DNA of 64,000 nt from Cetorhinus maximus (Eukaryota), in NCBI RefSeq assembly GCF_964194155.1, contig NC_135884.1, positions 34,162,001 to 34,226,000 on the forward strand. Reading direction: 5' to 3'. Numbering within the stretch: position 1 is the stretch's first letter; the number at the start of each line of letters is the position of its first letter. Below are positions 2,078 through 59,440 of this stretch, one piece after another. A program made the position numbers and the translations under genes. The notes under the pieces are model-generated. The model did not search any database, was not told the DNA's origin, and saw nothing but the letters and a program-made list of their open reading frames with translations.

Positions 2078-2974
2078 GGGCTGGATTTAACCGAGCTCGC
2101 TCGAGTGGGCTAGGCGGCAGGTGACCCACATAATCGTGGGGAAGGTTGCGCGCATCCCATTCCAACCAGTAGGAAAACTGACCCCATTGTTAGTAACTCT
2201 TTCGAGTTATCAACAGATCGCATGTAACTCTTTCGAGTACATTCACAGTTCTTGGTTTCCAGGAGTGGGACATGAACCCACAACCTTCTGGCTCAAAGGC
2301 GAGGGTGCTATGAACTGAGCCACAGCTGACACCTCCCCACCATTGTTAGTAGTGGAAATGGGCTGATGCAGGGAACCTGCCCAATGGCTAATTGGGCTCA
2401 TTAACAAGCCACTTAAAGATATTATTCCTGAGCCCACCAGGATTTAGTGATGGCTCAGGGATTCTCCTGAACTCACATGTGTTTCCCGTGCCTCCTTAAG
2501 GCTGCCCAGCAAAACTTGTCAGAGTTTCTACGAGCCTCCCGGGAAGATCCCTCTTTCAAAGGCATTTAGTGCCCGACGTAGGGACCCAGCATCGGGAAGG
2601 GGGATGCTCAGAGCCACCCCCTGCCCTTGCATCCAATCCTCCTCCCACTCCCTCACTGGTAACCCCTTCCCCATGACCCCCAACCCATCCTATCACCTTT
2701 TTCCAGGGATCCCACGATGATCTCACTGTCTAGTAACAGCCACCAATGCCAGTGGCGCTGCCTTTACTGGAAAGCTGCCAGCTTCCGACTGGCTGGCAGC
2801 TCTCGGTGGACGGGATTTGCATGGCCAGGGTGCTAAATCCCAGGAAAAGCCTACGCTGGCCACTTCAGTGCCTGACAGGCACTTCGATCAGGCCTCCCCA
2901 CTGAAGCAACGTAGGTCTCCCGCCGTTCTTCAACCGGTAAGCGGGACCCGCATCAAGAACACTAAATCCAGTCC
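2078..2974. mobile_element. Non-autonomous Harbinger-type MITE
   Basis: TIRs GGGCTGGATTTA (2078-2089) and TAAATCCAGTCC (2963-2974), with a 3-bp CAG duplication at 2075-2077 and 2975-2977. Confidence 0.75.
2196..2339 (-). mobile_element. Short tRNA-headed SINE with twin GAAA hairpin tail (copy A), nested in the MITE
   Basis: 12-bp TSD ccattgttagta at 2184-2195 and 2340-2351; closely similar to the two copies at 20570-20875. Confidence 0.85.
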
Positions 2975-3020
2975 CAGGAAAATTTAAATGAAGTAGAACT
3001 CCAGTGGTAAGTAACAGTGG

Positions 3021-3117
3021 AACAAAAACAAAGATAGCTGGAAAAATTCAGCAGGCCTGACAGCATCTGCAGAGAGGAATACAGTTAACGTTTCGAGTCC
3101 ATATGACTCTTCATCAG
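3021..3117 (-). mobile_element. Short Penelope-like repeat carrying a minimal hammerhead-ribozyme motif
   Basis: 12-bp TSD aagtaacagtgg (3009-3020, 3118-3129). Minus strand reads CTGATGA-A-GAGTC-atatg-GACTC-GAAA-CGTT. Confidence 0.7.
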
Positions 3118-3639: not shown

Positions 3640-4410
3640 TGAGCAATCATGATTATGGCAGATGGAGTACAATGAGGTGGAGTGTGAAGTTATCCACTTC
3701 AATAAAAATAAAAAAGAATAATATTTTTTGAATGGTGAGAGACTGGAAGACTTTTGCACTCAGAGGAACCTGGGTGTCCTAGTACATGGATCACAAGAAG
3801 TTGCCATGCAAGCACAACAAGTCATCAGGAAGGCAAATGGTATGTTTACTTCAATCACTTTGTAACAAAAGTTAAAAATAAAGAAGTCTTACGGCAATTA
3901 TACAGGGAATTGGAAAGACTACATCTGGAATACTGTATGCAATTTTTGGCTCCTTACCTAAGGAAGGACATGTTTGCCCTAGAAGAAGTGCAACAAAGAT
4001 TCAGTAGATTTGTAGTAAAAATAGAAAATGCTGGAAAAACTCAGCAGGTCTGACAGCATCTGTGGAGAGGGAAACAGAGTTAATGTTTCGAGTCCACATG
4101 ACTCTTCTTCAGGGGAAACTAGAACGTGGGGTCAGTCTCAGAAAAAGAGGTCAGTCATTTAGGACTCAGATGGGAAGAAATTTCTTCACTCAAAGGTTGC
4201 CAATCTTTGAAATTCTGTACCCCAGAAATCTATGGATGCCCAATCACTGAGAATATTCAAGACAGAGGTTGATAGATTTTGCGGCATTAAAGAATATGAG
4301 GATAGTCCAGGAAGATGGAGTTGTGGTAGAAGATCAGCCATGATCTTCTTGAATGGCAGAATATGCTTGAGGAGCCAAATGGCTCACTCCAGCTCCTATT
4401 GCTTATGTTT
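3640..4410 (+). mobile_element. CR1 LINE 3' fragment interrupted by a short Penelope-like repeat (~4018-4111)
   Basis: Degenerate RT C-terminal peptides (LEYCMQFLAPYLRKD, NFFTQR) and a CR1-type 3' UTR. Confidence 0.75.
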
Positions 4411-13061: not shown

Positions 13062-18911
<5,850 letters not shown>

Positions 18912-19434: not shown

Positions 19435-22400
19435 GTAAGTGAAGGTTTTACAGCTACAAATTGTTTAATTTATAAAATATATTCCAAATATTTCATTACT
19501 TTATTTATACATCTATTTATGAGTATTATGAATAATCAATAAGTGGTTTACCTTTAATCTGCAGAAAAAAAAATGAACTTAGTATTTATTTAATCTAAAT
19601 TAACTGACAATAATATAAACGGGCATCTATTCTAATAGTTTGACCAGGGACCTTTCGTTGATTGGATTGTCCAAAACAAAATTCGTAAAGGGCTGGATTT
19701 ATGTTGAAAACTTCCTTCGGAACTGACTGCTTAGATTATCAATTTATTATCGCAGAGGAAGTCTTTACAAAAGGTGGCTATAAACAAGTTACATTCGTTA
19801 TTGCAACTTCATAAAGTGAAGGTCAAATGATTTATTACTTTCTGTTTTATGTAAACCTCGTTTTATTGCATATTATCCATTTTAAGTCACTAACATTTTT
19901 GTATTTCTTCAGTTCTAGTAGTTTTTAAATAAAACAGAAAACGATTGAAATGCCCCGTTAATTTAATCTGTCCACAAACGCTCATCTATATTTTTTTTCC
20001 TTTCAGATGTTGGGACCTTTTTGTATATCCAGCATTTTATGTTTTTATTTCAGATTTCTAACATCTGCAGTTTTTTTCTTGTCTGTACCAGATTTTACCT
20101 CGAACATATGATATAATCGTTTTGCTTGTGAAAAGCGAACAAGCCTAAAAAGTGTCCGATTCTATATTAACTAAAACGGTGTACTGCATTTCCCAACTGT
20201 GAATTTAATCTGGATACCTAGCTGTACTGGACAGATGGGACTTTACCGATGATGTAGGCCAATGTGGACATGTGATTCATTTAATCTTGTATTAGATAAT
20301 CTGAGATCCTCCAATAAATCAGTGGTCAGACAATGTTAGACAGCTCCTATGAAGAGTCATACGGACTCGATACGCCGGCTGTATCCCTCTCCGCAGATGC
20401 TGTCAAACCTGCTGAGTTTTTCCAGGTATTTTTGTTTTTGTTTCAGATTTCCAGCATCCGCCGTATTTTGCTTTTAGCTCCATGTTTTGAGTTGGGTTCT
20501 CCCACTTTACCATTTGTTGCCTGTACAATTAAGGTCCAGGTAGCGGTAGTGCTTCTTGATAGGGTACCCCACGAGGTGTCAGCTGTGGCTCAGTTCATAG
20601 CACCCTCGCCTTTGAATCAGAGGGTTGTGGGTTCATGTCCCACTCCTGGAAAACCAAGAACTGTGATTGTACTCGAAAGAGTTGCAATCTGTGACTGTTG
20701 ATAACTCGAAAGAATTTTGATAGGGTACCCCATGAGGTGTCAGCTGTGGCTCAGTTCATAGCACCCTCGCCTTTGAATCAGAGGGTTGTGGGTCCATGTC
20801 CCACTCCCGGAAACCAAGAACTGTGATTGTACTCGAAAGAGTTGCAGTCTGTGACTGTTGATAACTCGAAAGAGTTTGATAGGGTACCCAGTAGGATACA
20901 GGAGAGGGAGGATTAATCCCCAACAACCCCACAAAAATACATTCTCTAAATATTATTCACCAGCATATACATACCATACCTTAAGATGGTATGTTCTCGT
21001 TTTATATAAATGTTATAAACAAATGTTCAAACTCAAAATATTCTGTGAATAAGATAAAACATGGTTGAACTGTACTGTGATGCTATTTTCGTACCTGGAT
21101 CCGCTCGAAGTACTTGGTGCAGCGGAATCATTCCCATGGTCTCAGAAACATTTTTTTTTGCTGACCCGATGACCGCTGCGCATTATTCACATTCTCTATC
21201 AACTATCACCTGGCAACGTGCTAATAAATATCTGGGTAAATATCTTGCTGAGTAAGATATAATTATTATATATAAGATATAATTATTCAAAAATAATTAA
21301 TCCATAGCTATCTTTGCTCTTTAATACTTGACGTCCCATATCCCATCATCAACGCAGTGTTATTGTGGGTGCTTTTTCAGTCGTTCATCGCATCATTTCA
21401 TAAATTTGTAAAAATGTAAACAAGCTTCTGACCCGCCCTAAACGTTGAAAGGATGCGAGTACAATTGGCCTCTAAATTCCTGAGTTGAGGACGGTGCAGA
21501 TTGGGATTTGAGAGTTTGTGATATGAGGAGTCCTTCGATTTTGACCAACATAATTCCTGCTCCCACGTATTATTTCAAGTCCAACAAATCCGTTTGTGTG
21601 CGATAGTTTAAGTAACACTGGCTAAAGTTTGAAGCAATAGAAACAAAATAGGGCAGATGCTGGAAATCTGAAACAAAAACAGAAAATTCTGGAAAAACTT
21701 AGCAGGTCTGGCAGCATCTGTGGAGCGTGAAAGAGTTAATGTTTCCAGTCGGTATGACTCTTCTTCAGACTTTTGAACGGTTTGCCGCATTTTCCGGCTC
21801 AATCCCCGCCAAGACCGGCCGTAAAATTCTGCCCTGGTGTCAGAAAGGCTTTCTGATTTGAATATTACAACCTATTTTACCTCTTTTACTTGCTTAGCAG
21901 TTTGGCTCCCACTCACCAGTGTATTCAATTGCCTAATGCAAATAGTAACAAAAGCTAGGATTAAACCTTTTTAATTGAACATAATTACATAATTTTTAGA
22001 TAGTCATCTCACATTGACAAATGGAAACATTGTATCAAACATGCAGATTTTTCCATTTCAATATTTAACACAAATCTATGACTTCATTCAATTTAATACA
22101 GGGCATTGTGGCAGACGGTGAATATTCCACATGAAGAGCACATTGGGCCGCACAAAGAAGTGCTGGAGCTGTCCACATATCTCAGTCCTGTTTTCAACAG
22201 GGGTCCAAAGAAAGTAGTACTTTTCTGGCAAGACAAGGTAATTGAGGCAATTTTTTTTCTGCAAACATATGAGTTAAAGGATTTTAAAATCTGTTTTAAA
22301 AAGATCAACAGGCAACATTGTAACACTTAAAAAGGAATGTGTAAAGATCATTGTGATCCAACTGGTCAGTCCAGAAACTGAGAAAGATTGCAAATGGTTT

Positions 22401-25400
22401 AAAACTGCGAGCAAGATTCCAACCCGGAAATGTGAAAACTCACTAACAGATACTGCTTTTGTCTGCTAAGAACTCCTCACTATTCCAGGATCATCTTGGA
22501 ATGCAAAGATAACCCTGGCTTCTTTTCTGCACTGAAAACCCTCTTCTTCACCCCCTCCACCCTCATCTTCAACAAGCGTGAAGAGCTCATGAATTTCTTT
22601 GTCACTAAGATTGACAGAATCCAATCAGCATGCTTCCCTTCCACTAGCCAACCTGGTCAAACTTTCTTCAATGGTCCTCCCTGCCCTAGCCCTGAACTTA
22701 TATCTTTCTCTATTTTCTCTCTTACCTTTCCTCATCCCCTCTCCATGAGACCCTCCTCTTGTTCTCTTGATCCTATTCCCACTGAATTGCTGATCAGTCT
22801 ACTTCCCCTCCTGGCCCCCATGTTAGCTAATATTGTAAATAGCTCTCTCTCTTTTGGTGTTGTCCCTCTCTCCGTTACATATGCCATCATCACCCCTCTC
22901 CTCAAAATACCAACCCTTGACCCTCTGTTCTTGCAAACTACTGTCCCATTTCCAACCTCCTTACTTCCCTAAAGTCCTTGAACACGTTGTCATCTCCAAA
23001 ATCTGTGCCCACTTTTCCTCAAACTTCTTGGGCAGAATTTTCCATTTGCCGGTCGTGCGGGCCCGACCGACCCGGCGGCAGTGGGCGGCCAATTGCCACT
23101 GAAGAAACGGGCAGTGCTGCCATTTTCCACGGGTGGGCCAATTAAGGCCCACCCCGCGGGTAAGCGACTCCCGTGGAGAACGGGAAAATAGTCGCGGGGG
23201 GGTTGGGGGTGGGGGGGGGGGGGGGGGCGGCCTCAGGCTGCCGGCTCCAATAGGGAGCCAGCAGCCTGCATAAAGAGTGGCCAGGCAGCCTGCTTGAGGC
23301 AGTGCACCATGGCCACTCATGGAGAGAGGGAGGGGGGTGCGAGTGGAGAGCAGCATGAGCAGGAAGAAGGGGCAGGCTTCAGGAGAGGCCAGCGGGAGGC
23401 CACTGTGCCCCCTGATTTTCCGATGCATGCCTTGCTGTCCTCCTGCAATCCGTCGGCAACTTCTGTATCCGGAGGATGGGAGGAGGAGGGCCCCCCATGT
23501 CACCAGCCAGGCGTGGGAGGAGGTGGGTGACGCTGTAAGTGCCCATGATGATGTGCGGTGCACTGGCACACAGTGCAGGAAACGATTCAATGATTTGCTG
23601 CGCTCTGGAAGGGTGAGTGCCATGTCTGTCTTGGCCATTTGACCCAGAAGGCAGCCTTAGCCCTTGACCCCCCCCCCACCATGTCTTGCTGTCGTTACTG
23701 CAGAGGGCATCTGTCGCATGCTGGGTGGGCAAATGGGTACTGACCATGCTTACACCAGCCTTAGTGGTTGAGGAGAAGAATGGTTCTCCCCGCAGCATAT
23801 GTTGGTCTTTGTGGCATTAGAGTAGTCTGGGGGCAACCTGCAGGGGAGGCCGCTAGACACATACTCAGGACTCCAACACATGTCATATTGATGGTAATGA
23901 GATGGTGCAAGGGCTGCATCAAGGTGTTTTGGGCAAGTGCCATCTGCTGGCATTGGCGCAGCACCTAGTTGTGCCTCCTTGCCATGGGCGCTAAGAGCCA
24001 TGTGATATTCAAAGTGATGGATGCCGAATGTGCCCAAGGTAGCGGTTGGGGGAGGGGGTTGGGACCAGCCGTGCTATCTTCTGGGAACTGATCACCAGTA
24101 GTGTGGACAGGAGCCGCTGGAGGCCTCAGATGGGCCACTGTGGTTGGGGTGTGGCGTGCGCGTGCAGACTACATGAGCAAGCAGCCCCAATAAATCCTCT
24201 TTTCTGTTTTGCAGGCAAAAACTCACCACAATGCCTGGGAGCGCCAGAGGACTGGAGGTGGGCGTGCCCTCCTGCAGCGCCTCATGCCTTTTGAAGAGCG
24301 GGCCATGGAGTTGGGCAGCAGTCAGGAGGCCAGGGCGGCCGGGGGCGGTGAGGCTGGGGTCCAGCGGGCAGGTATTTGAGGTCCACAGTCCCATCCACTC
24401 TGTCTGCACACCATCCAAACCACTGATGGTTGCTGCAATCATTAATGCTGAAACAATGCTCATTCACAGACTGAGACATTCTGACGTGTGGTTCATACAG
24501 AAGGGACCCTCGTCCCCTTGAGGAATCGCGTCTCCACCACCTTCCAAAGTCACCTTATCCCATTTGTGACCACTATCACCATGGTCTAACATGCCATTAG
24601 ATCTCCGCTGCACAGCCAAAGACTTATTTCATCTGAGGGGGTTTGAGACCTCTAGCACCCTTTCAGCCAGTGCGCCCCACATTACTTTGTCCAAAAGGTC
24701 CTCAGCACCTCAGCTGTGAACATCATGGCACTCAACTTAGATGAATGCCACCACGTTACTCATTCCTGCGCCAAGGGGAAATGTTGCCTTCTGCCCACCC
24801 GGTCTATGCCCCTCCTTACGGAATGAAGGCCAATAATGTGACCTCTCAATCTCCTGTGATCGACGGCAAATGTCGCTACTGTTTGCGATGTTTCCTCAGC
24901 CCCGCAACTATCCAGGCCACAATGCATCCAAGTCAGGTACCTCTGCATTCTCCCCACTCCTATGGTTCATAACATGCCATGTGGCATTCCTGAGGCCATC
25001 TGACCAGCCTGTCTGCATGTGCGTTTAATGTTTGAGGCTCGTCTTGATTCTTTTTCAACTCACCAATGTTCTTCTCCTTAGGGTCTTGAAGGGTGAGCGA
25101 CTTATGAGGCTGGGGGGGAAAGGGATGAAAGGTTGAACTGAATGTACACTAACTGATGCACTGTCCTTGTTGTTAATTTCAGCGTCACCACCAGAGAGTA
25201 CCGCACCTCGACCCCGCGGTTCCCCCTCCACACCTGAGAGCCAACAAGTGCAACTTGCGGCACATCATTTCAGCCAGCCAGGCACCAGTGTATACACATA
25301 CACCTCGGTGGGGACTTTACTGTCGGCTAGTGTCCCGGGTCACAGTGGAGAGGGCACATCACAATCGCTGGAGGAGGTGGAAGGGGCAGAGAGTGCCGAT

Positions 25401-28400
25401 GGCTCCAGCAGCCGGAGGGCTGCAGGGGATAAGGCACATGCTGACTCCGGCACTGATGACGTGCCTTTGGAGTTGTCCCCATTGCAGCAGCTGCAGGAAA
25501 GGTGGCAGGAAGTGCGTTTGCATCTGACAGGGTTGCATGAGGGAAAGGTTCAGTTGCTGTCTGTGACGGAGGAGTCTAGGCAGAGTGCAAGCGAAGAATC
25601 CACCCTCCGGGCAGAGCTTCAGGATTCCTTCAATGAGAGATTGGCGACTCTCATAGAGAGGGGCTTCCACCAAATGGATCAACATATCTGACCTGCAAGC
25701 CCTCACAACGGTTCTGGCCACAGGTGGTGTTTTCCATTGTGGGAGATGTTGTGGACACCAAGCGCCGGCACTCTATGCCCATGCATCTGCAGTGAGCAGG
25801 GAGGTAGATTTGAACCTCACATCAGCGCAGCAGCTGCCTGCCATTGCTGCGAGCTCCTCTCATGGTGCTCCGGATGAGAGCAGCAGCTCCTCCGCCCCTC
25901 TGCCAGTCAACGTTTCTTCCGTTGAGGCTGCGACAACTGGGGAGGTGCCAGTTCTGGAACTGGCCACTCCCTCCCAGGCGGGGGCATTACAGGCTCCACG
26001 GGCCAGAGTCAGCAGGCTGTCTTTCAAGCCACTCTGAGCGATGGGGTGGCACCTAGACATAGCACCTGAAAACATAAGCATAAGGCACCTTAGGCACTCC
26101 ACGGGTATGTCACTGGTGATTTTGTGTTGGCCTTAGAATAGGGACCCATATTTTTGTGATCGCTAACAAGTGGTGTGTGTTTTTGTTTTGGACAAAATAA
26201 AGTCCACCTTTGTAACCGTGGCTGAGGGTCTTTTGTTTGTGGTGCATTTTTCTTTTTCACATATTTATCATGAGTGTTTGAGTGGACATTGATGTTTCTG
26301 TACTAAGCCCTTATTTGCAGCTGAACAGGTGGAAGATGTGGCACCTAAGTGCCATGTGTGGAAGTGCCAGGCAATGCTGTTCCTGCTGTTCCATGTGTGT
26401 GGAGCTAGCTGAAGGTTCATTGGATTAAATTGTAGCAGGTGTCCCTGCCTCCTTGGTGTAAATGCGGGTCATTGTTCTGCCCCTCATCATCGCCCTGTGC
26501 TTCCTCATCCTCTGAGGCACTGCTGGATTCATCATGTGCAGCCTCATCCAGGGCGTCAAGGTCTTCATCGTCAACTGCATCCCCCCTTTCCAGCGCAAGA
26601 TTGTGCAGGGTGCAGCAGACTACCACTATCAGAGACGTAATCTGGGGGGTACTGGAGTGCGCCCCCTGAGCGGTCCACGCAACGGAAGTGCATCTTGAGA
26701 AGACCAATGGCTCTCTCCACCACAGCCCTTGTGGTCCCCTGGCTCCTATTGTACCGATGCTCAGCTTCTGTTCTTGGACGGCGTAGTGGCATCATGAGCC
26801 ACCTTCACAGAGGATAGCCCTTGTCACCCAACACTGAAGAGCCCCGGCATCTGGGAGTGTCTGAGGATGTAGGTGTCGTGGGAGCTGCCTGGGTACCTTG
26901 CACAGACATGTAAAATCTGCATCCAGTGATCACACACTATCTGCACGTTCATGGAGTGGAAGCCCTTCCTGTTGACGAAGGCACCGGGTTCACCTGCTGG
27001 CGCCTTGATGGCCATGTGTGCAGTCTATTGCACCCTGGACTCGGGGGAAGCCAGCAATGGCCGTGAAGCCTCTGGCTCGCTGTGCCTGACTTGCCTGGTC
27101 CCAGCGGAAGTGGATGAAAGTGGATACCCATCTGAACAGAGCATTTGTAACCTGCTTGACACAAGTGTGGACAGCTGATTGGGAGACACCGCAAAGATCA
27201 CCCACCGAGCCCTGGAAGGAGCCAGAGGCATAGAAGTGGAGGGCAACTGTGAGCTTCAGAGTCACTGGCATGGGGTGTCCACCCACACAGTTAGGGGAGA
27301 TCTCAGGGCCAATCATCTGAGATATAGTTGACTGACTCCCTTGAGAGTCGGAGCCTCCTTCGGCACTACACCTCAGTCATATTGAGGTGGCTGCTTTGCC
27401 GCCTGTATAGCCTGGCGGCAGGATAATGGCGTCTTCTGAGGACCCTTGCACCTTGGACAACCTCTTGGCCCTGTGCTCCTTGTGCCTGCGCCTGGCCTCC
27501 CATAGGTGGCTCCCCTGGAGGCTGATTGTCCAGTCCTGGCCTCCTCCTTATTCTATCCCTCCCTTCCTCGTCAGGGGAGCTGCCTCCAGTGGAGAGGTCA
27601 GAACCCATATCCCCAGGATAAATGGAGGCCTCCAGAAAGCTGCAGGCCTGAGAAAGATTACTGTCTGCAGACTGGTTTCAAAGTACACAAGAAGCTCTTC
27701 GAAATCGATGAGAACTACTAACAATCACACAGGCAACTTTTAAACACTTTCATCAATTATAACTTCGTCAAAAACATGAACAACCCCTCTGAGTCCACAT
27801 ATGCCGACATTGCAAAAGTTTTCTTAAATAATCTCCTACCCGCCTTCCCATTGGGCCCATGCGCCGACCCGAAGTTCGCACGGGCCCCTCAAAATCATAC
27901 ACAATTGGCAAGTTAAGGGGCTTAATGAGCCCTTCAATTAATGGCGGGCGAACTGAGCGCGTCCACTCACCGAAATACCGTGATGGCGCGCGCTGACGTT
28001 GGCACGCTCACGCGTCATTTTACACACTGACATGCGGGCTACGCCATCTGCACGTCAGCCGGAAAATTCTGGCCCTTGTTTGAATCCCTCCAATCTGATT
28101 TCCACCCCTGCCTTAGTACCAAACAATGCTTACCAAAGTCACAAATCGGATCCTATGTGACTGTGACAAAGGTAAACTATCTTTCCTTGTTTTTCTTGAC
28201 CTGTCTGCAGCCTTTGACACACCATCCTTCTCCAATACCTCTCCACTGTCATACAGATGGGTGGCACTGCACTTGCCTGTTTCCACTTTTATCTATCTAA
28301 TTGCAGCCAGTGTATCATTTGCAATGGCTTCTCTTCCTGCTCTGGCACCATTACCTCTGGTGTTCTCCAAGGTTCCATCCTTACCCCGCCCTCCCCCCCC

Positions 28401-52800: not shown

Positions 52801-52958
52801 TTTGGAATGAACAATATAACCAGAGCGGCCAGCACCATCTGACCCAGTTTTTCACTCCACACAATAGGTTTAATATTTTGATTTATTTCTAATCGGGTGG
52901 CCGATTGGATCCGGATCCGCAGTGAGGTACGTGCCGCTGAGCCGGCTTGTTCGGGTCC

Positions 52959-54155
52959 ATGTGCGGCCTGGTCAGCAGCGCCGCCCGCTCGTTACCCTCA
53001 GCCGGCTCACAGCGGCTTGTAGCCCGCTTCCCCTCGGGGCCGGTGGCCATGCAGACAGCGGTTGTCCGCTGTGTCCCCACTGAGACCAAGTTGACCATCT
53101 CGCTGCGGCTGGGGCCCGGGAACGGAACCCAGCGGCACCTGCAGCGGGAGCAGAGCGAGAGCCTGCGGACCGCGCTCGGCCGCATCGCCCAGAACCTGCT
53201 CAAAGCGCAGGCCAAGCCCGGGAAAGGCCGGAAGGCAGCCCAGGCCCAGGCTCAGGCCTCGGCCCCGCCGGTCGTCCTATACCAGGGAGAGGAGCCGGTG
53301 CCCGGGGACACGAGTAACGCCGAGGCCTGGCAGGATGGAGCCGTCTTACAGGTGGGGGAGGCCCGGTACCGAGTGGAGAGAAACCCGCCCACCTTGACCC
53401 AGCTCCGGTTACCCAGCTCCCTTCTGGCCGGCTTCCCGGTCTGCCCCAAAGTGGAGCTGGAGTTCGGGGAGGCCTCGCACTCTCTGTTCGAGTGGCTGAG
53501 GGAGGCGGACGGGGGCTGGGAGGCGGCGGCTAGCGGCCGAGTCTTCACCCCCAGTAACAGCCACATCGGCCTGAAGCTGAAGCTGAGATGTCAACCGGGC
53601 GACGGGCGGCGCTTCGGGGCCGCGGTGGAGCTGGAAAGCGGCGGCACGGTGGAGGCCGGCCCGGGAGCTTGTACCTGTGACAGCCGCCAGTGGTTCACCC
53701 GCCAGGGCCTGGAGGAGCCGCAGCTCCGGGTGGTTTCCTACAACATCCTGGCCGATGTGTACGCGCAGACCGAGTTCTCCAGGAGTAACCTGTACCCTTA
53801 CTGCCCGCCCTATGCACTGGAGGTCGACTACAGGCAGAACCTCATCAAGAAAGAGCTCAGCGGCTACAATGCCGACATCATCTGCCTCCAGGAGGTGGAT
53901 AAGAATGTGTTCACCAACAGCCTGTCCCCGGCCCTGGATGCTTTCGGCTTTCAGGGAGTGTTTCGGGTCAAGGAGAAGCAACACGAAGGTCTCGCAACTT
54001 TCTTCAGAGCCTCCAAGTACCGGCTGTTAAGTCAGCATGATGTGATCTTTAGCGAGGCTCTCGCTTCAGACCCCTTACACTTCGAGCTTTTGGAGAAGAT
54101 TTCTGCAAATCCCATTGTTAAAGAAAAGGTGTTGCAAAGATCAACCGCTTTCCAG
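52959..54155 (+). CDS. PDE12: PDE12 exon 1, within a CpG island
   Basis: Part of ORF 52947-54185; first ATG at 52959; donor TTCCAG|gtact. Confidence 0.95.
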
Positions 54156-57100
54156 GTACTTCAAAAGATATTTTGGACGCTGTAGCTTTCGAGATTTCAG
54201 TTTTGGGATATAGGCCAGTCTGTGCTGGGAAAATAGTATTTCGATTTTTCCTGGGAGCAAAATATTGGTACAATCAGATTTTAGGTGCAGATTTTTACTC
54301 TAAAGGTTTGAATTAATTAACATTGATGCAGCAAAGTAGAAATTTAGTGTTAATAACATTGAACAGATGCCTGTTGTTAAATAACAATCGCGGTATTATA
54401 ATGTACATTATATTGTGAAGATGAATGCCCATTTGGGAACTTTAAAGAATACACATGATTATCTTCCATTTTCAAAATATTGGGGCAGCAAACTACAGGA
54501 TAATTAAATTCTGAACAGCTGAAATCCCATTCAATACTTTGTGTTCTTTATATTTTTATACAGGAAATTATTAGGGTCTATGATTAAGTATAGAGTAACT
54601 GAACACGCTGAAACTTTTCAGCTGATCCGAGAGAATTTGTGAATGGTAGTCATGCCTAACAAACCTCAATTAATTTTTTAAAAAGTGACTGAAGTAGTGG
54701 CTAAGGGAATGCCTATAGATGTTATTTATATTGACTTTCAGAAGGCATTTGATAAAGTCCCTCATAAGAGACTGTTAGCTAAAGTTGAAGCTCATGGAAT
54801 TGAAGGCAAATTATTGACTTGATTAGGAAATTGACTGTGGCAAGAGACTGAGCTGGGATAATGGTCAAGGACTCTAATTGGTAGGATGTGACTAGTAGTG
54901 TTCCGCAAGGGTCTGCATTGGGACCTTAACTATTCACTATTTATTAATGGCCTAAATGATGGAAAAGAAAACCACGTGTCCAGGTTTGCTGATGACACAA
55001 AGATTAATGTCATTGTGAGCAGTGAAGATGGAAGCATAAAGTTACAAATCGATACTAATAGATTAAGATAGTTTTTGGTCATACAGAACTTGAGTAGTAC
55101 TGGAAAAAGAGACATATCAAACCTTTTTGTCTTGCACTCATCAGGACATACGCGAACATACTAATTGTAAAGGGAACATCAATTTATACTTCATGAGAAG
55201 AGAGTGCTGATTGGTTGGCAAGTGGACTCTGATCGGTCGAGGCGTTGCCTGGAGAAAGCTTCAACATGTGTCTTTTTTCAGTGATACTCAAGATTAAGAA
55301 TGGACAAAACTATGGCAAATGTGAAGTCATCTGCTTTGGACCTGAAAAGGATAGAACAGAGTATTTTCTAAATGGTGGAAAGCTAGAAACAGTGGAGGTG
55401 CAAAGAGACCTGGGGCCCAGATACATAAATCATTAAAATGTCATGAATAGGTATAGAAAGTAATTAAAAAGTCTAGTAAGAACATAAGAAATAACAACTG
55501 GAGTAGGCTATGTGGACCCTTGAGCCTGCTTCCCCACTGAATAAGATCATAGCTGATCTTCAATCTCAATTCCACAATCTCCATGTCCTTTAATTCCACT
55601 AGAGTCCAAAGACCTATCTGTCGGAGCCATGAATATACTCAACGACTGAGCATCCACAGACCCCGGGGTGGAGAATTCCAAAGATTCACAACCGCCTTAG
55701 TAAAAAAAGTTGCTCTTCATCTTAGTCTTGAATGATCAATCCATTATCCTGAGACTGTAACACCTAGTTTTAGACTCTCCAGTTAGGGGGAACAACCTCT
55801 CAGGATCTACCCTGTCAAAGCCCCCTTAGAATCTTATAAGTTGCAACAGGATCACCTCTCATTCTCTTAAACTCCAGAAAGTATAGGTCCAATCTATTCA
55901 ACCTCTTTATAGGACAATCCTGTAACTCCAAGAATCAATCTAGTGAACCTACACTGCACCACCTCCAAGTCAAGTATCCTTCTTTAGATGAGGAGACCAA
56001 AACTGCACAGTACTCCAGGTGTGGTTTCATCAAAGCCCTGTACAATTGTACAAATTTTTGCTTACTCTAGTACCCCACTCCCCTCTTTCTAATTGGTTGC
56101 TGTACCTGCATGCTAACTTTCTGTATTTCTTGTAATGAAATGCTTGCCTTCATATCTAGGGGATTAGAATACAAGTCATGCTGCAGCTGTACAAAGCCCT
56201 GGTTTGACCACACCTGGAGTGCATTAAGCAGTTTTGAACTTCAGACTTAGAAAGGATATATTGGCCTTGGACAGAATGGAGCATTGACTTACCAGAATGG
56301 TACCTGCACTCAAAGGATCAAATTACCAAGAGAGATTACACAAACTAGGGTTGTATTCATTGGAATTTAGAAGGTTATAGGATGATTTGATCAAAATTTT
56401 CAAGATATTAAGGGGAGCTGACAGGGTAGGTATAGAGAAGTTGTTCACATTGGTGAGGAACCCAGCACTGAGGGCATAATTTTCAGGCATGAAGTTATGA
56501 AACGTTTTTACGTGCAAAGCATAATGAAAGTTTGGAACTCTTCTTTTGCAATTGATGCTAAGTTTATTTTCAATCTGTGATTGATAGATTTTTGTTCACC
56601 AAAGGTATTAAAGGATATAGGGCAAAGACAGATATGTGGAAGTAGGTTGCCAACCACCAGGATCTTGTTTAATGGCAAACAGGCTCGAGAAGCTAAATGG
56701 CCTGCTCCTGTTTCTGTGTTGTTTAAGAAATCCAGTGTTTACTGTACATTATTGATTTTAAACACTGCTACTTTTATTTAGGTTTGTGTACTTCAGTCTC
56801 TAAAAGATTCATCAAAGAAGTTGTGTGTTGGTAATACTCATCTTTATTGGCACCCCAAAGGTAAATTTTACATCTATAAAATTATCTGGCATTTCCTTTC
56901 TTTTCCCCTCTCCCCTTTTTTGGATATGCATCTCACGTCTGCTTGGCATGAACTTGCCCATTAACAATTGTCCAATTAACTAATTGTGAGGCTGACTTAC
57001 TGCTCCAAGATGGATTGTGTTATAGTTGAAGACCTAAATCCTGTTTGAAATCTGTGTTATCTGAAATAGCTATCTTTTTATCAGTATTATCACTCGATTT

Positions 57101-59440
57101 TGTTTTTTATACCAAAATAGCACAGAAAAAAATTGCACTTAATCCTATACATTTTTTGTGCGTGTTACAATCTCAGTAGACACCAGTAACATTTTAAAAG
57201 AAATTGAACCCCCAGTTATTAACTGAAAGAATTATGCCACAGGATTTCATGTTTTAAACAAAAATGTTTACTGTACAAGTTAAATAAGCCAATACTACTA
57301 ATTTAACAAGCAGCTATATTTTAAACCTAAAAATCTCAACAGAATACTCCTGTTTTACTTTTTTTTCCATCCAAGAGTTCCCCTATACATGATCTTGATG
57401 GCTCCTTCACTTTTCCTGGGACCCAACCAAGGTGTTTTACAGCTCTCAGGAATTCACTTCAATTCTCCTCAGTGTTCCTGCTATTCTCCGAGGCATGAGA
57501 TTTTTTAGGGTCCTTCCACTAAGTAAAATCTCTAACTCTCCTTCAATCCCTCCCCAGCTCAAGCAACCCTCGGTTTCTGATAGCTATCTGTTCCTGGTCC
57601 ACAGTTCCTGGCAGATTCTCTCTATATTTGTTCAAACTGCTCCAGACCCAGACTTCAGCTAGCTACTTCTGTGAGAAATCACAAAAACAAAAAAAGAAAT
57701 TCTCCCTGCAATCTATCCCCACGGCAATGTGGCACACCTAGGATGTCACAGATAGAGATTTAAGCGAATTATCTCCAATTTTCAAACCTGCTCTCTGTTC
57801 TGGGAAGCCCTATGAATAAATTCACACATTCTCCCAGTTTCTCCTCCTCTGTCGTGTCTGTTCTGATGATGCAACCTTCCACACCAGCGCTTCTAATATG
57901 TCTCCTTTTTCCTCAACTGAGGATTTCCCCCCACTGTGGTTGACAGGGCCCTCAATTTCCCACACTTCTGCTCTCACCCCTTCCCCTCCCAAAACTGTGA
58001 TAGGGTTCCTCTTGTCCTTACTTTGCACCCCACCAGCCTCCACATTCAAAGGATCATCCCCTGCCATTTCTGCCACCACCAAACACGTCTTCCCCTCCCC
58101 ATTCAACATTCTGAAGGGACCGTTCCCTCCGCGAGAACCTCGTCCACTCCAAATCACCCCCAGCATCTTGTCCCCCTTCCCAGGCAATCGCAGGAGATGA
58201 ATACCTGCCTTATTACCTCCTCGCCGTCCAAAGCCCCAAACGCTCCTTCCAGGTGAAGTAGTGATTTACTTGTACTACTTTCAATTTAGTATATCGTATT
58301 CGCTGCTCACAATGCGCTCTCCTGTACACTGGCTAAACCAATTGGCTCAGTCCATAAGTATTACCTCAAGCTTCTGGTTGCTTGCCAGTTTACTTCACGA
58401 CCTTGGTCTCTCACTCACATTTCTGTCCTTGGCCTGCTGCAGTTTTCCAGTGAACTCAATGCAAACTTGGGCAGCAGCACCTCATCTTCCAATCAGGTAC
58501 TTTACAGGCTTCTGGACTCAACTTTCAGACCATGAACTCTGTCCTCCATTTTGATTTTGTTTTTTTGCCACGCGCTGATTTGAATCTTGTATTTTATGTT
58601 TTTGTTTTCGGACAGAGTTGTTCATTATTCTGGCATTTCACTCTGGACAAATGCTTTGTCTCTTTATTACAATCATTGCCACTCCTTTTGCCTTTTGTTC
58701 CAAGGCATCTTTGTCATTTAATTTCTCCTGTCCTCTACCCTATCCCAGACCTTTTCTTTTGTTCTTCCCTCCCCCTTTCAACAGCATATCTACATCACAT
58801 TTTTACCCTCCATCAATTCTGAAGAAATATTCAACTTGAAACATTAACTCTGTTTCTCCACAAATGCTGCCAGGCCTGCTGAGTATTTCCAGCACTTTTT
58901 ATGCCAATCGCGATTTGTTGGATGTGATGTCAGATAAGTTCTTTTGCCAAACTGTAATCTTGATATTGCAAGACTAAATAAATCGATTTTTTTTCAGGAG
59001 GACACATTCGCCTTGTTCAGATAGCAATCGCCTTTCGTCACCTCCAACGAGTTACAGCAGAGATGTACCCCAATATACCAGTAATTTTTTGTGGTGACTT
59101 CAACAGCACTCCAAACTCAGGCTTGTATGAATTTGTCACCAAGGGACACATTTCTGCTGATCACCCCGACTGGACTTCAAACGGTGAGGAAGAACAATGC
59201 AGCATGTCCCTTACACACTCATTTAAACTAAGAAGTGCTTGTGGAGAACCTGCTTACACAAATTATGTAGGTGGCTTCCAAGGTTGCCTGGACTACATTT
59301 TCATGGATATTAACATGTTTGAAGTTTTTCAGGTTATTCCTTTTCCAAGTCACGAGGAAATCATCTGCCATTTGGCTCTGCCAAGTGTTTCACATCCATC
59401 AGATCATATTGCACTTATCTGTGATCTGAAATGTAAATAA
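52959..59440 (+). CDS. PDE12: 2',5'-phosphodiesterase 12 (mitochondrial deadenylase), 3 exons, 572 aa
   Basis: Exons 52959-54155, 56782-56860 and 58998-59440 total 1719 nt; EEP motifs SYNILAD, ICLQEVD, NTHLYWHP, CGDFNS, LDYIF, PSDHIAL. Confidence 0.96.
54590..56720 (+). mobile_element. Degenerate CR1 LINE with nested inserts (inverted-repeat element 55069-55292; antisense CR1 3' end ~55480-56130)
   Basis: YIDFQKAFDKVPH, VPQGSALGP and FADDTK remnants; CR1-type 3' UTR at ~56600-56720. Confidence 0.75.
55069..55292. mobile_element. Short inverted-repeat element with a second-family hammerhead motif
   Basis: Inverted arms ~55089-55128 and ~55255-55292; agattaaga duplicated at 55060-55068 and 55291-55299. 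Confidence 0.6.
56782..56860 (+). CDS. PDE12: PDE12 exon 2
   Basis: VCVLQSLKDSSKKLCVGNTHLYWHPK. Confidence 0.95.
57822..58900 (+). mobile_element. Penelope-like element 3' portion (RT end, GIY-YIG remnant, terminal repeat)
   Basis: FSQFLLLCRVCSD- and DRVPLVLTLHP-like remnants; ends in the same repeat family as 3021-3117 (ctgaaga...gaaacattaactctg...gctgagtatttccagcac). Confidence 0.7.
58998..59440 (+). CDS. PDE12: PDE12 exon 3
   Basis: GHIRLVQIAIAF...IFCGDFNSTP...YTNYVGGFQGCLDYIF...HPSDHIALICDLKCK*. Confidence 0.96.

Follow-up and report, generated by a model that had tools for sequence, protein, structure and literature searches.

The window considered here, a stretch of 64,000 nucleotides from contig NC_135884.1 of Cetorhinus maximus, contains three copies of a short interspersed element (SINE), at 2196-2335 on the minus strand (copy A) and at 20573-20716 and 20734-20875 on the plus strand (copies B and C), much as an earlier description made from the letters alone (the original prediction) had them. 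Each copy holds two ACTC-GAAA-GAGT hairpin cores, such that ACTCGAAAGAGT occurs six times in the window (once with a mismatch) against an expectation of 0.15, and each of these copies ends without a poly-A or microsatellite tail. The target-site duplications (TSDs) measure 12-14 bp, being the 12-bp TACTAACAATGG around copy A and the 14-bp TTGATAGGGTACCC, which is present three times around copies B and C. In an alignment, the head is similar to two ordinary SINE copies of the window that likewise begin with a tRNA-like head (for the one at 1089-1164, 51 of 68 columns are identical) and that may be SacSINE1, the name given in the earlier description; the likeness ends with the head, the other ~70 nt being a linker and the hairpins, and the central domain is absent. 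The name aside, the original prediction was borne out on these points. The features are as follows.

2184-2195, minus strand: 3' TSD of copy A, TACTAACAATGG, with an A-type junction, GAGT/TAC
2196-2335, minus strand: SINE copy A, subfamily A1 (hairpin 1 GAATGT...TTACATGC), bounded by GAGG and GAGT
2196-2207, minus strand: terminal hairpin core of copy A, matching the 3' end of the Tx1 partner
2227-2238, minus strand: hairpin 1 core of copy A, ACTC-GAAA-GAGT
2340-2351, minus strand: 5' TSD of copy A, TACTAACAATGG, separated from the element by four extra bases, TGGG (2336-2339)
20549-20556, plus strand: target motif upstream of the B/C site, GTGCTTCT, consistent with the family motif G-T-S-C-x-x-C-T
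20556-20569, plus strand: first TSD copy of the B/C site, TTGATAGGGTACCC, followed by extra bases CAC (20570-20572)
20573-20716, plus strand: SINE copy B, subfamily B, with a GAATT(T) end variant and a 4-A run
20671-20682, plus strand: hairpin 1 core of copy B
20704-20715, plus strand: terminal hairpin core of copy B
20717-20730, plus strand: second TSD copy, the spacer of the B/C array, followed by extra bases CAT (20731-20733)
20734-20875, plus strand: SINE copy C, subfamily B (GCAG variant), bounded by GAGG and GAGT
20734-20805, plus strand: tRNA-like head of copy C, with an A-box-like TGGCTCAGTTCA and a B-box-like stretch, both altered at positions that are normally invariant
20831-20842, plus strand: hairpin 1 core of copy C
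20864-20875, plus strand: terminal hairpin core of copy C
20876-20889, plus strand: third TSD copy of the B/C site, TTGATAGGGTACCC, with a B-type junction, GAGT/TTG

Three properties had gone unnoticed: the family numbers thousands of copies, copies B and C form a tandem spaced by the TSD, and the SINE terminates at GAGT, the next base being that of the target. Copies B and C differ from one another at variants that are present elsewhere in the family. Outside the SINE copies, two open frames on the plus strand (52941-54185 and 58982-59440) appear to resemble a PDE12-like exonuclease gene.

The 20-mer at the 3' end of the SINE has 8,406 exact matches in the 3.99-Gb genome, where its reversed control has none, and the unit of ~143 bp is short, non-coding, dispersed, high in copy number and flanked by TSDs. 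An unbiased set was defined as the first 100 matches listed (contig C1), all of which were fetched, and targeted sets were added. The resulting 302 units fall mainly into four types by hairpin 1, namely B (GATTGT/GCAATC or GCAGTC), A2 (GAATGT/ACAATC), A1 (GAATGT/ACATGC) and the hybrid A3, and each subfamily diverges on average by only 1.0-1.9% from its own majority sequence. The family is therefore young and thousands of copies strong, and the earlier view is upheld that it is a chimeric SINE of recent origin, in which a tRNA-like head is joined to a structured tail and whose partner is not CR1/L2. In the unbiased set, a TSD (median 13 bp before the shared first base is added) flanks 51 of the 60 events that are complete at the 5' end, and only 3 of the 23 that are 5'-truncated. 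The whole unit is also covered by contigs of three other organisms (runs X6, X10 and X11), two of which (X10 and X11) contain tandem joints with spacers of 11-13 bases. At one locus (L022:1950-2020) a SINE lies directly behind sequence that resembles the end of a histone H2B frame, and on contig C11 (G000:C11:43.47-43.51 Mb, L081-L089) copies have been multiplied within a larger tandem repeat at a spacing of ~2-7 kb.

A candidate partner is found in the arrays themselves, several of which start with a piece ending in TTGTTTTGACTCAAAAGAGTT and set off by a spacer identical to that of the SINE. This end belongs to a LINE whose full units measure 7.1-7.9 kb and encode ORF1 and a 1,296-aa ORF2 with endonuclease and reverse transcriptase (RT) domains. 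The best named relative of ORF2 is the Xenopus Tx1 149-kDa protein (646/1300 identical, 50% over the full length), and assignment to the Tx1 clade rests on this similarity ranking, with two ORFs, an APE endonuclease and an RT. The 1,296-aa frame is present in 27 of the 30 best ORF2 loci fetched, with a mutual likeness of 98.4-100%, and the intact ORF2s are of one family, their endonuclease domains being 97.5-100% alike; scoring covered the best 36 of 80,928 candidates, beyond which a second, rarer Tx1 family with another preference may exist. The 3'-end pattern of the LINE has 689 matches, and in all 100 of those listed the next base is A, mostly as ACATCTT. Like the SINE, the LINE is tailless and ends in the ACTC-loop-GAGT hairpin, and the match of 16-17 nt between the end of the SINE tail and the Tx1 3'UTR scores above 300 of 300 shuffles. 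The earlier description had called for an autonomous element sharing the tail; such an element exists as regards the terminal hairpin, but only about 16 nt are held in common. A search for the whole SINE tail behind non-SINE sequence, which covered part of the possible contexts, gave 51 matches, mostly indel variants, with no recurring foreign context and no Tx1 copy bearing the whole tail. Arrays at one site can combine A-type units, B-type units and Tx1 pieces (B-type included at L077, L168-L170 and L176). From these sequence comparisons, the Tx1-clade LINE is well supported and very probably the partner of the SINE, which it would likely mobilise. The linker AAGAACTGTG resembles part of the 5' region of Tx1, but not significantly, since 8 of 60 shuffles did equally well.

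The LINE has features of its own. Full-length copies whose ORFs are open are arrayed head to tail, 7-9 kb apart, with a shortened spacer, ACATCTTAAC (G000:C2:163.81-163.87 Mb, C1:219.57-219.58 Mb and C21:27.32-27.34 Mb; L178-L185 and L247-L276), and their 5' UTR holds a long repeat of the GTTCCTGCTGCT type. At L182:770-975, a Tx1 end, a second, variant Tx1 end and an A1 SINE lie directly 5' of a full Tx1, and the block recurs 7.18 kb later; the SINE could here serve as an upstream promoter of Tx1. Older, diverged Tx1 3' ends occur at L002:979-1122 and L071:1878-2200, the latter as ATACT-AAAAG-AGTAT, which has the same hairpin plan with a different stem.

Mobilisation by a Penelope-like element, which the original prediction had suggested, now appears very improbable. 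In its favour, mini-elements of the Penelope type are common, a 12-bp TSD flanks one of those in the window, their hammerhead core contains ACTCGAAA, and a Penelope-like RT has been described to initiate internally in vitro (PMC11167929). Yet the arrays, the TSD spacer, the terminal hairpin and the target site are all shared with the Tx1-clade LINE instead. The SINE tail has neither a CUGANGA core nor stem II and matches no Rfam ribozyme, so that only ACTCGAAA is common to it and the local Penelope-type pieces, and its reading as a degenerate hammerhead was rejected. The arrays that were parsed held Tx1 pieces with a common TSD, and in an unsystematic look no Penelope piece was noticed as a unit. 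The mini-elements of the window, with the core CTGATGA...GAAAC, lie at 3015-3114, 4008-4094, 15177-15389, 20349-20476 and 21638-21763, one pair of them inverted.

For the tail, a compensatory change in hairpin 1 had been put forward. The letters are as described, but A2 (30 units) and A3 (7 units) carry an A.A mismatch at the pair in question, and the type of copy A itself, A1 (23 units), has a broken neighbouring pair. Moreover, the 3' letters that were compared are probably not homologous, since the 3' arm of A1 differs by an indel (ACATGCGATCTGTTGA versus ACAATCTGTGACTGTTGA). The A.A mismatch has been repaired in two ways, on the 5' side in B and on the 3' side in six units with ACATTC, which fits mild selection on the stem through at most a few events; hairpin-1 covariation as strong evidence is rejected by the 302-unit comparison. 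Conservation of the stem in the partner's terminal hairpin is the better evidence: the stem is kept (two rare ends change C-G to T-A) while the loop varies. The GAAA tetraloop accordingly holds for the window copies but is not required, the loop of the partner being mostly AAAA and otherwise GAAAA, TACAA, TGAAA and other variants. Several arrays (L015, L022, L046, L225 and L240) contain duplications of the tail or a hairpin only, several of them restarting at TCCCGGAAACC, and the double hairpin may have originated in this way.

The tRNA A and B boxes have a consensus with invariant positions, from which the SINE head departs by GG to CA in the A box and A58 to T in the B box; its Pol III promoter may thus be weak, and ARAGORN called no tRNA. 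An Rfam scan of 20500-20950 with E up to 10 returned nothing relevant, a single weak trypanosomatid snoRNA match (E 7.3) being taken as chance; U1 and U2, from which a head of the SINEU type would derive, are absent from the matches. The idea that the copies were retrocopied from a functional small RNA of the host containing two GNRA hairpins, a variant of the undescribed small RNA once proposed, draws on folding, in which copies B and C surpass their shuffles (z -3.8 and -2.5) with pairing between head and tail. Copy A does not behave in this manner (z -0.9), four other units give z -1.5 to -2.2, several source loci and lineages have been active, and the hairpin matches the 3' end of a LINE and no Rfam family; we consider such an origin most unlikely. 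Head-tail pairing is predicted in the folds of several copies, and at 20573-20716 the head has changed to TTCA, through which CAGTTC becomes the complement of GAACTG in the linker.

The preferred insertion site, GTGCAACT/ACATCTTCTTAAC, lies within an old repeat of ~5 kb (65-84% between copies) that we call Harbinger-like because it carries a DDE_Tnp_4 transposase; the site is internal, downstream of the transposase frame, and the second frame of the repeat had no Pfam match. An exact pattern finds 624 empty sites, and there are 399 SINE ends directly adjoining the exact target. Of the 88 events in the unbiased set, 17 occurred at this site and the other 71 outside it. The sequences that preceded insertion in 60 non-Harbinger events share G-T-S-C-x-x-C-T upstream (~6.4 bits over positions -9 to +4), and G-T-S-C-x-x-C is common to the A and B lineages and to all three junction classes. 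As most of the motif lies outside the duplicated bases, we attribute it to the endonuclease. The Tx1 LINE likewise has a sequence-specific target, in that its end is followed by A in 100 of 100 matches listed, mostly in ACATCTT; the site lies in the DDE_Tnp_4 repeat. Elsewhere, two B copies (L129 and L131) occupy another repeated target, TCAGGTACCCCT/TCAATCGGC, and L126 shows a second insertion site inside the Harbinger-like repeat. In the window, a GC-rich block (22000-28000) includes a frame, 25137-25691, that appears by sequence to resemble the non-transposase frame of Harbinger-like repeats.

Beyond the shared motif, the first bases of the target follow the lineage of the inserted copy. 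Junctions read TAC for A-types and Tx1, TTC or TTG for B, and ATC for a sub-lineage of B. The base after GAGTT is A in 26 of 28 A-type events and in none of 47 B-type events (p 4e-18, a value that overstates independence because copies descend from few sources). The GAGTA class comprises 899 matches, with T next in 98 of the 100 listed; at all 11 loci that could be scored, the target itself has A at that place and the upstream motif keeps its register, from which it follows that GAGT is the end of the element and that the TSD begins one base earlier. This class behaves as a lineage, since none of its 30 units is A-type and it is rich in hairpin-1 loop variants (loop intact in 3/30 versus 42/64 ordinary B, with five unscored in each). 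T occupies +1 in only 1 of 100 empty Harbinger sites listed, and both exact B-tails at T-variant Harbinger sites lie in arrays or singles founded by B. Among 17 exact B-like tails at A-sites, 7 are A/B hybrids and 10 are true B, of which one is a clear single (L194) and the others lie upstream of other units, mostly internally or at the 5' end; these counts at T-variant sites and A-sites are low, and copies related by descent do not provide independent observations. Given the Tx1 partner, it is rather likely that target choice is partly set by the RNA and heritable, and the insertion-site choice of each lineage is likely inherited from the DNA just behind the parent copy.

The same junctions would follow if each SINE lineage depended on a different Tx1 endonuclease, pairing of the RNA having no bearing on target choice. 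Different Tx1-Mar families were inferred for different SINEU families by Kojima 2015 (PMC4494074), older Tx1 ends have diverged at L002 and L071, and ORF2 scoring reached only the best 36 candidates. Against this, A, B and Tx1 pieces co-occur in arrays (mixtures account for 16 of 44 closed multi-unit events), the upstream motif is identical for all three junction classes, the terminal hairpin is identical in A and B, and the intact ORF2s, with their closely similar endonuclease domains, are of one family. We therefore hold separate endonucleases to be unlikely.

Array spacers other than TSDs often prove to be captured 3' flanks with a T-run at the end. Spacers that are not TSDs end in TTT in 16 of 40 cases, against 1 of 69 TSD spacers and a background of 9%, while 24 of 40 do not; most of them start like junctions, with TCC, TCA, ACA or ATC. 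At L116 the spacer is the 3' flank of a TSD-flanked copy, L115, exactly to its T5 run, followed by a Tx1 piece, and L116 and L115 have a private head variant in common. Copies on contigs C1 and C9 similarly share private variants and a 24-nt flank that ends in a T-run. Three flanks were traced, only one of them to a SINE-bearing donor in the assembly; L169 gave a sibling copy only. The flank captured at L200 maps to L216 (1490-1565), where there is no SINE and the upstream bases resemble the motif. L216 may be an empty allele or a source of host RNA, the latter reading arising from a look-alike of the terminal hairpin, GATAACTCAAACAGAGTT, within the same interval. A further captured spacer of 98 nt, at L176:1678-1775 (= L242), ends in GGAAACCATATTTTTT and resembles a decayed tRNA-Asp. 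Collectively, the captured flanks suggest an RNA that continues beyond GAGT as far as a Pol III stop, with priming normally internal and the flank copied in full by jumps from end to end; the 24 of 40 spacers without the T end and the altered A and B boxes speak against this. The flanks that end at T-runs are an indirect indication of possible Pol III transcription of the SINE.

Multi-unit insertions make up 14 of the 71 non-Harbinger events in the unbiased set, and lineages are mixed in 6 of 29 closed non-Harbinger arrays, which duplication of a single copy cannot give. Some 10^8 motif-grade sites are available to ~10^4 copies, which would put independent re-hits at around 10^-4; insertion is therefore locally repeated. 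The extra bases of the outer junction are repeated in 12 of 19 spacers, as with CAC and CAT in the window, a pattern more readily explained by successive insertion or by duplication than by a single unbroken cycle. Arrays and junction classes might instead stem mainly from duplication at the DNA level or from hitch-hiking with Harbinger, as the repeated blocks of some arrays, the recurrence of extra bases at successive junctions and the copy within a larger tandem repeat on C11 would allow. However, the host repeat is old and the SINE 1-2% diverged, 71 of 88 unbiased events lie outside the repeat, the 5'-complete events mostly (51/60) have their own TSD, and arrays mix lineages and Tx1 pieces, the window's B and C among them differing at family variants. 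As the main source of the pattern, such duplication is highly improbable; repeated blocks in some arrays (L193, L196 and L064) do indicate that DNA-level expansion adds to array length. The arrays thus seem to reflect successive re-use of the regenerated 5' target together with later DNA-level expansion.

Taken together, the SINE shares its terminal hairpin, target motif and arrays with Tx1, by which it is likely mobilised, and the junction bases of each lineage are likely inherited through pairing of the read-through RNA with the nicked target. In the proposed sequence of events, Pol III would transcribe a copy beyond GAGT into its own 3' TSD and flank, halting at the first T-run. Tx1 ORF2p would bind the ACTC-loop-GAGT hairpin and so fix the start of reverse transcription, from which the sharp, tailless end of ordinary insertions at GAGT would result. 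All lineages insert just downstream of G-T-S-C-x-x-C, with a TSD of about 13-14 bp, presumably through one enzyme's cut, and the best natural match to this motif is the one site in the old Harbinger-like transposon. The first three to four TSD bases follow the lineage, as would be expected if the bases behind the hairpin pair with the nicked primer; the flank of the daughter would then resemble that of the parent, and the preference would be passed on. Finally, one site often takes several RNAs, from different SINE lineages and Tx1 pieces, presumably because the regenerated target is primed again and because template jumps from end to end carry over the whole read-through flank. The fullest form of this proposal, in which Tx1 has been hijacked via a 12-nt hairpin and retargeted, with the endonuclease setting the motif, the parent's TSD acting as a heritable guide of 3-4 bases, lineage B thereby free to spread across the genome beyond the Harbinger site, and the one enzyme joining several RNAs at a single site, has in our estimation slightly better than even prospects.

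The closest precedent is the crocodilian SINEU/Tx1-Mar system. According to Kojima 2015 (PMC4494074), use of Tx1-Mar was inferred from a common Mariner preference, tandem copies sandwich a TSD, SINEU heads are U1/U2-derived, no LINE with the same 3' terminus was detected for SINEU-1, and the SINEU-1/2/3 families stand at 85-91%, with most SINEU-2 above 90%. The two systems are alike in a short retroposon inferred to use a Tx1 LINE, a common site in an old DNA transposon and TSD-sandwiching tandems; the present element differs in its tRNA-like head, a terminal hairpin in common with an intact Tx1, copies 98-99% identical (SINEU families being older), junction bases that track lineages and 3' transductions that can be traced. 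Its partner resembles Xenopus Tx1L in its half-identical ORF2 and in targeting a DNA transposon. The crocodilian Tx1-9_AMi also prefers Harbinger (PMC4494074), but is placed about 300 bp from the Harbinger 5' end, whereas the site here is internal and 3' of the transposase frame. For SART1Bm and R1Bm, downstream target-like RNA bases have been proposed to pair with the target and so to make initiation more accurate (PMC7265360); both of those elements are autonomous, belong to the R1 clade and have a single fixed target, while the SINE is non-autonomous and has three junction classes under apparently one enzyme.

A 3' stem-loop common to SINE and LINE is also known from the stringent pairs, among them UnaSINE/UnaL2, HE1/HER1, SacSINE1 and CmiSINE/L2-2_CM (PMC3747384 and PMC5499810). 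Tx1 is not among the partners named in the SINE/LINE table of PMC3747384, and the shark and chimaera SINEs listed there have CR1/L2 tails; the word Tx1 is absent from PMC5786205. Like these pairs, the present SINE joins a tRNA-like head to a LINE-like 3' hairpin; unlike them, it has no central domain, no repeat tail and TSDs of 13-14 bp. Compared with the ordinary copies of the window, it has neither the Deu central domain nor the CR1/L2-like tail of SacSINE1/DeuSINE. It would appear to work like SINEU/Tx1-Mar combined with R1-type read-through priming, as a member of neither SINEU nor SacSINE1. A tRNA-headed, Tx1-tailed SINE was not found in open-licence PMC and bioRxiv main texts. Each mechanistic ingredient has a precedent, and the combination was not found in this literature.

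The family offers a young Tx1-clade SINE/LINE pair whose ORF2 frames are intact, whose RNA signal is very small and whose junctions number in the thousands, and in which the shares of endonuclease and RNA-primer pairing in target choice are separable in genomic data. It suggests that an insertion preference may be inherited via the flank and not the element, and 3' transduction makes SINE source loci traceable. TSDs of 13-14 bp and occurrence in other organisms make the SINE a likely phylogenetic marker. Furthermore, a vertebrate retrotransposase that is tailless, registered by a hairpin and partly tuned by RNA would have a bearing on tools for site-specific gene insertion.
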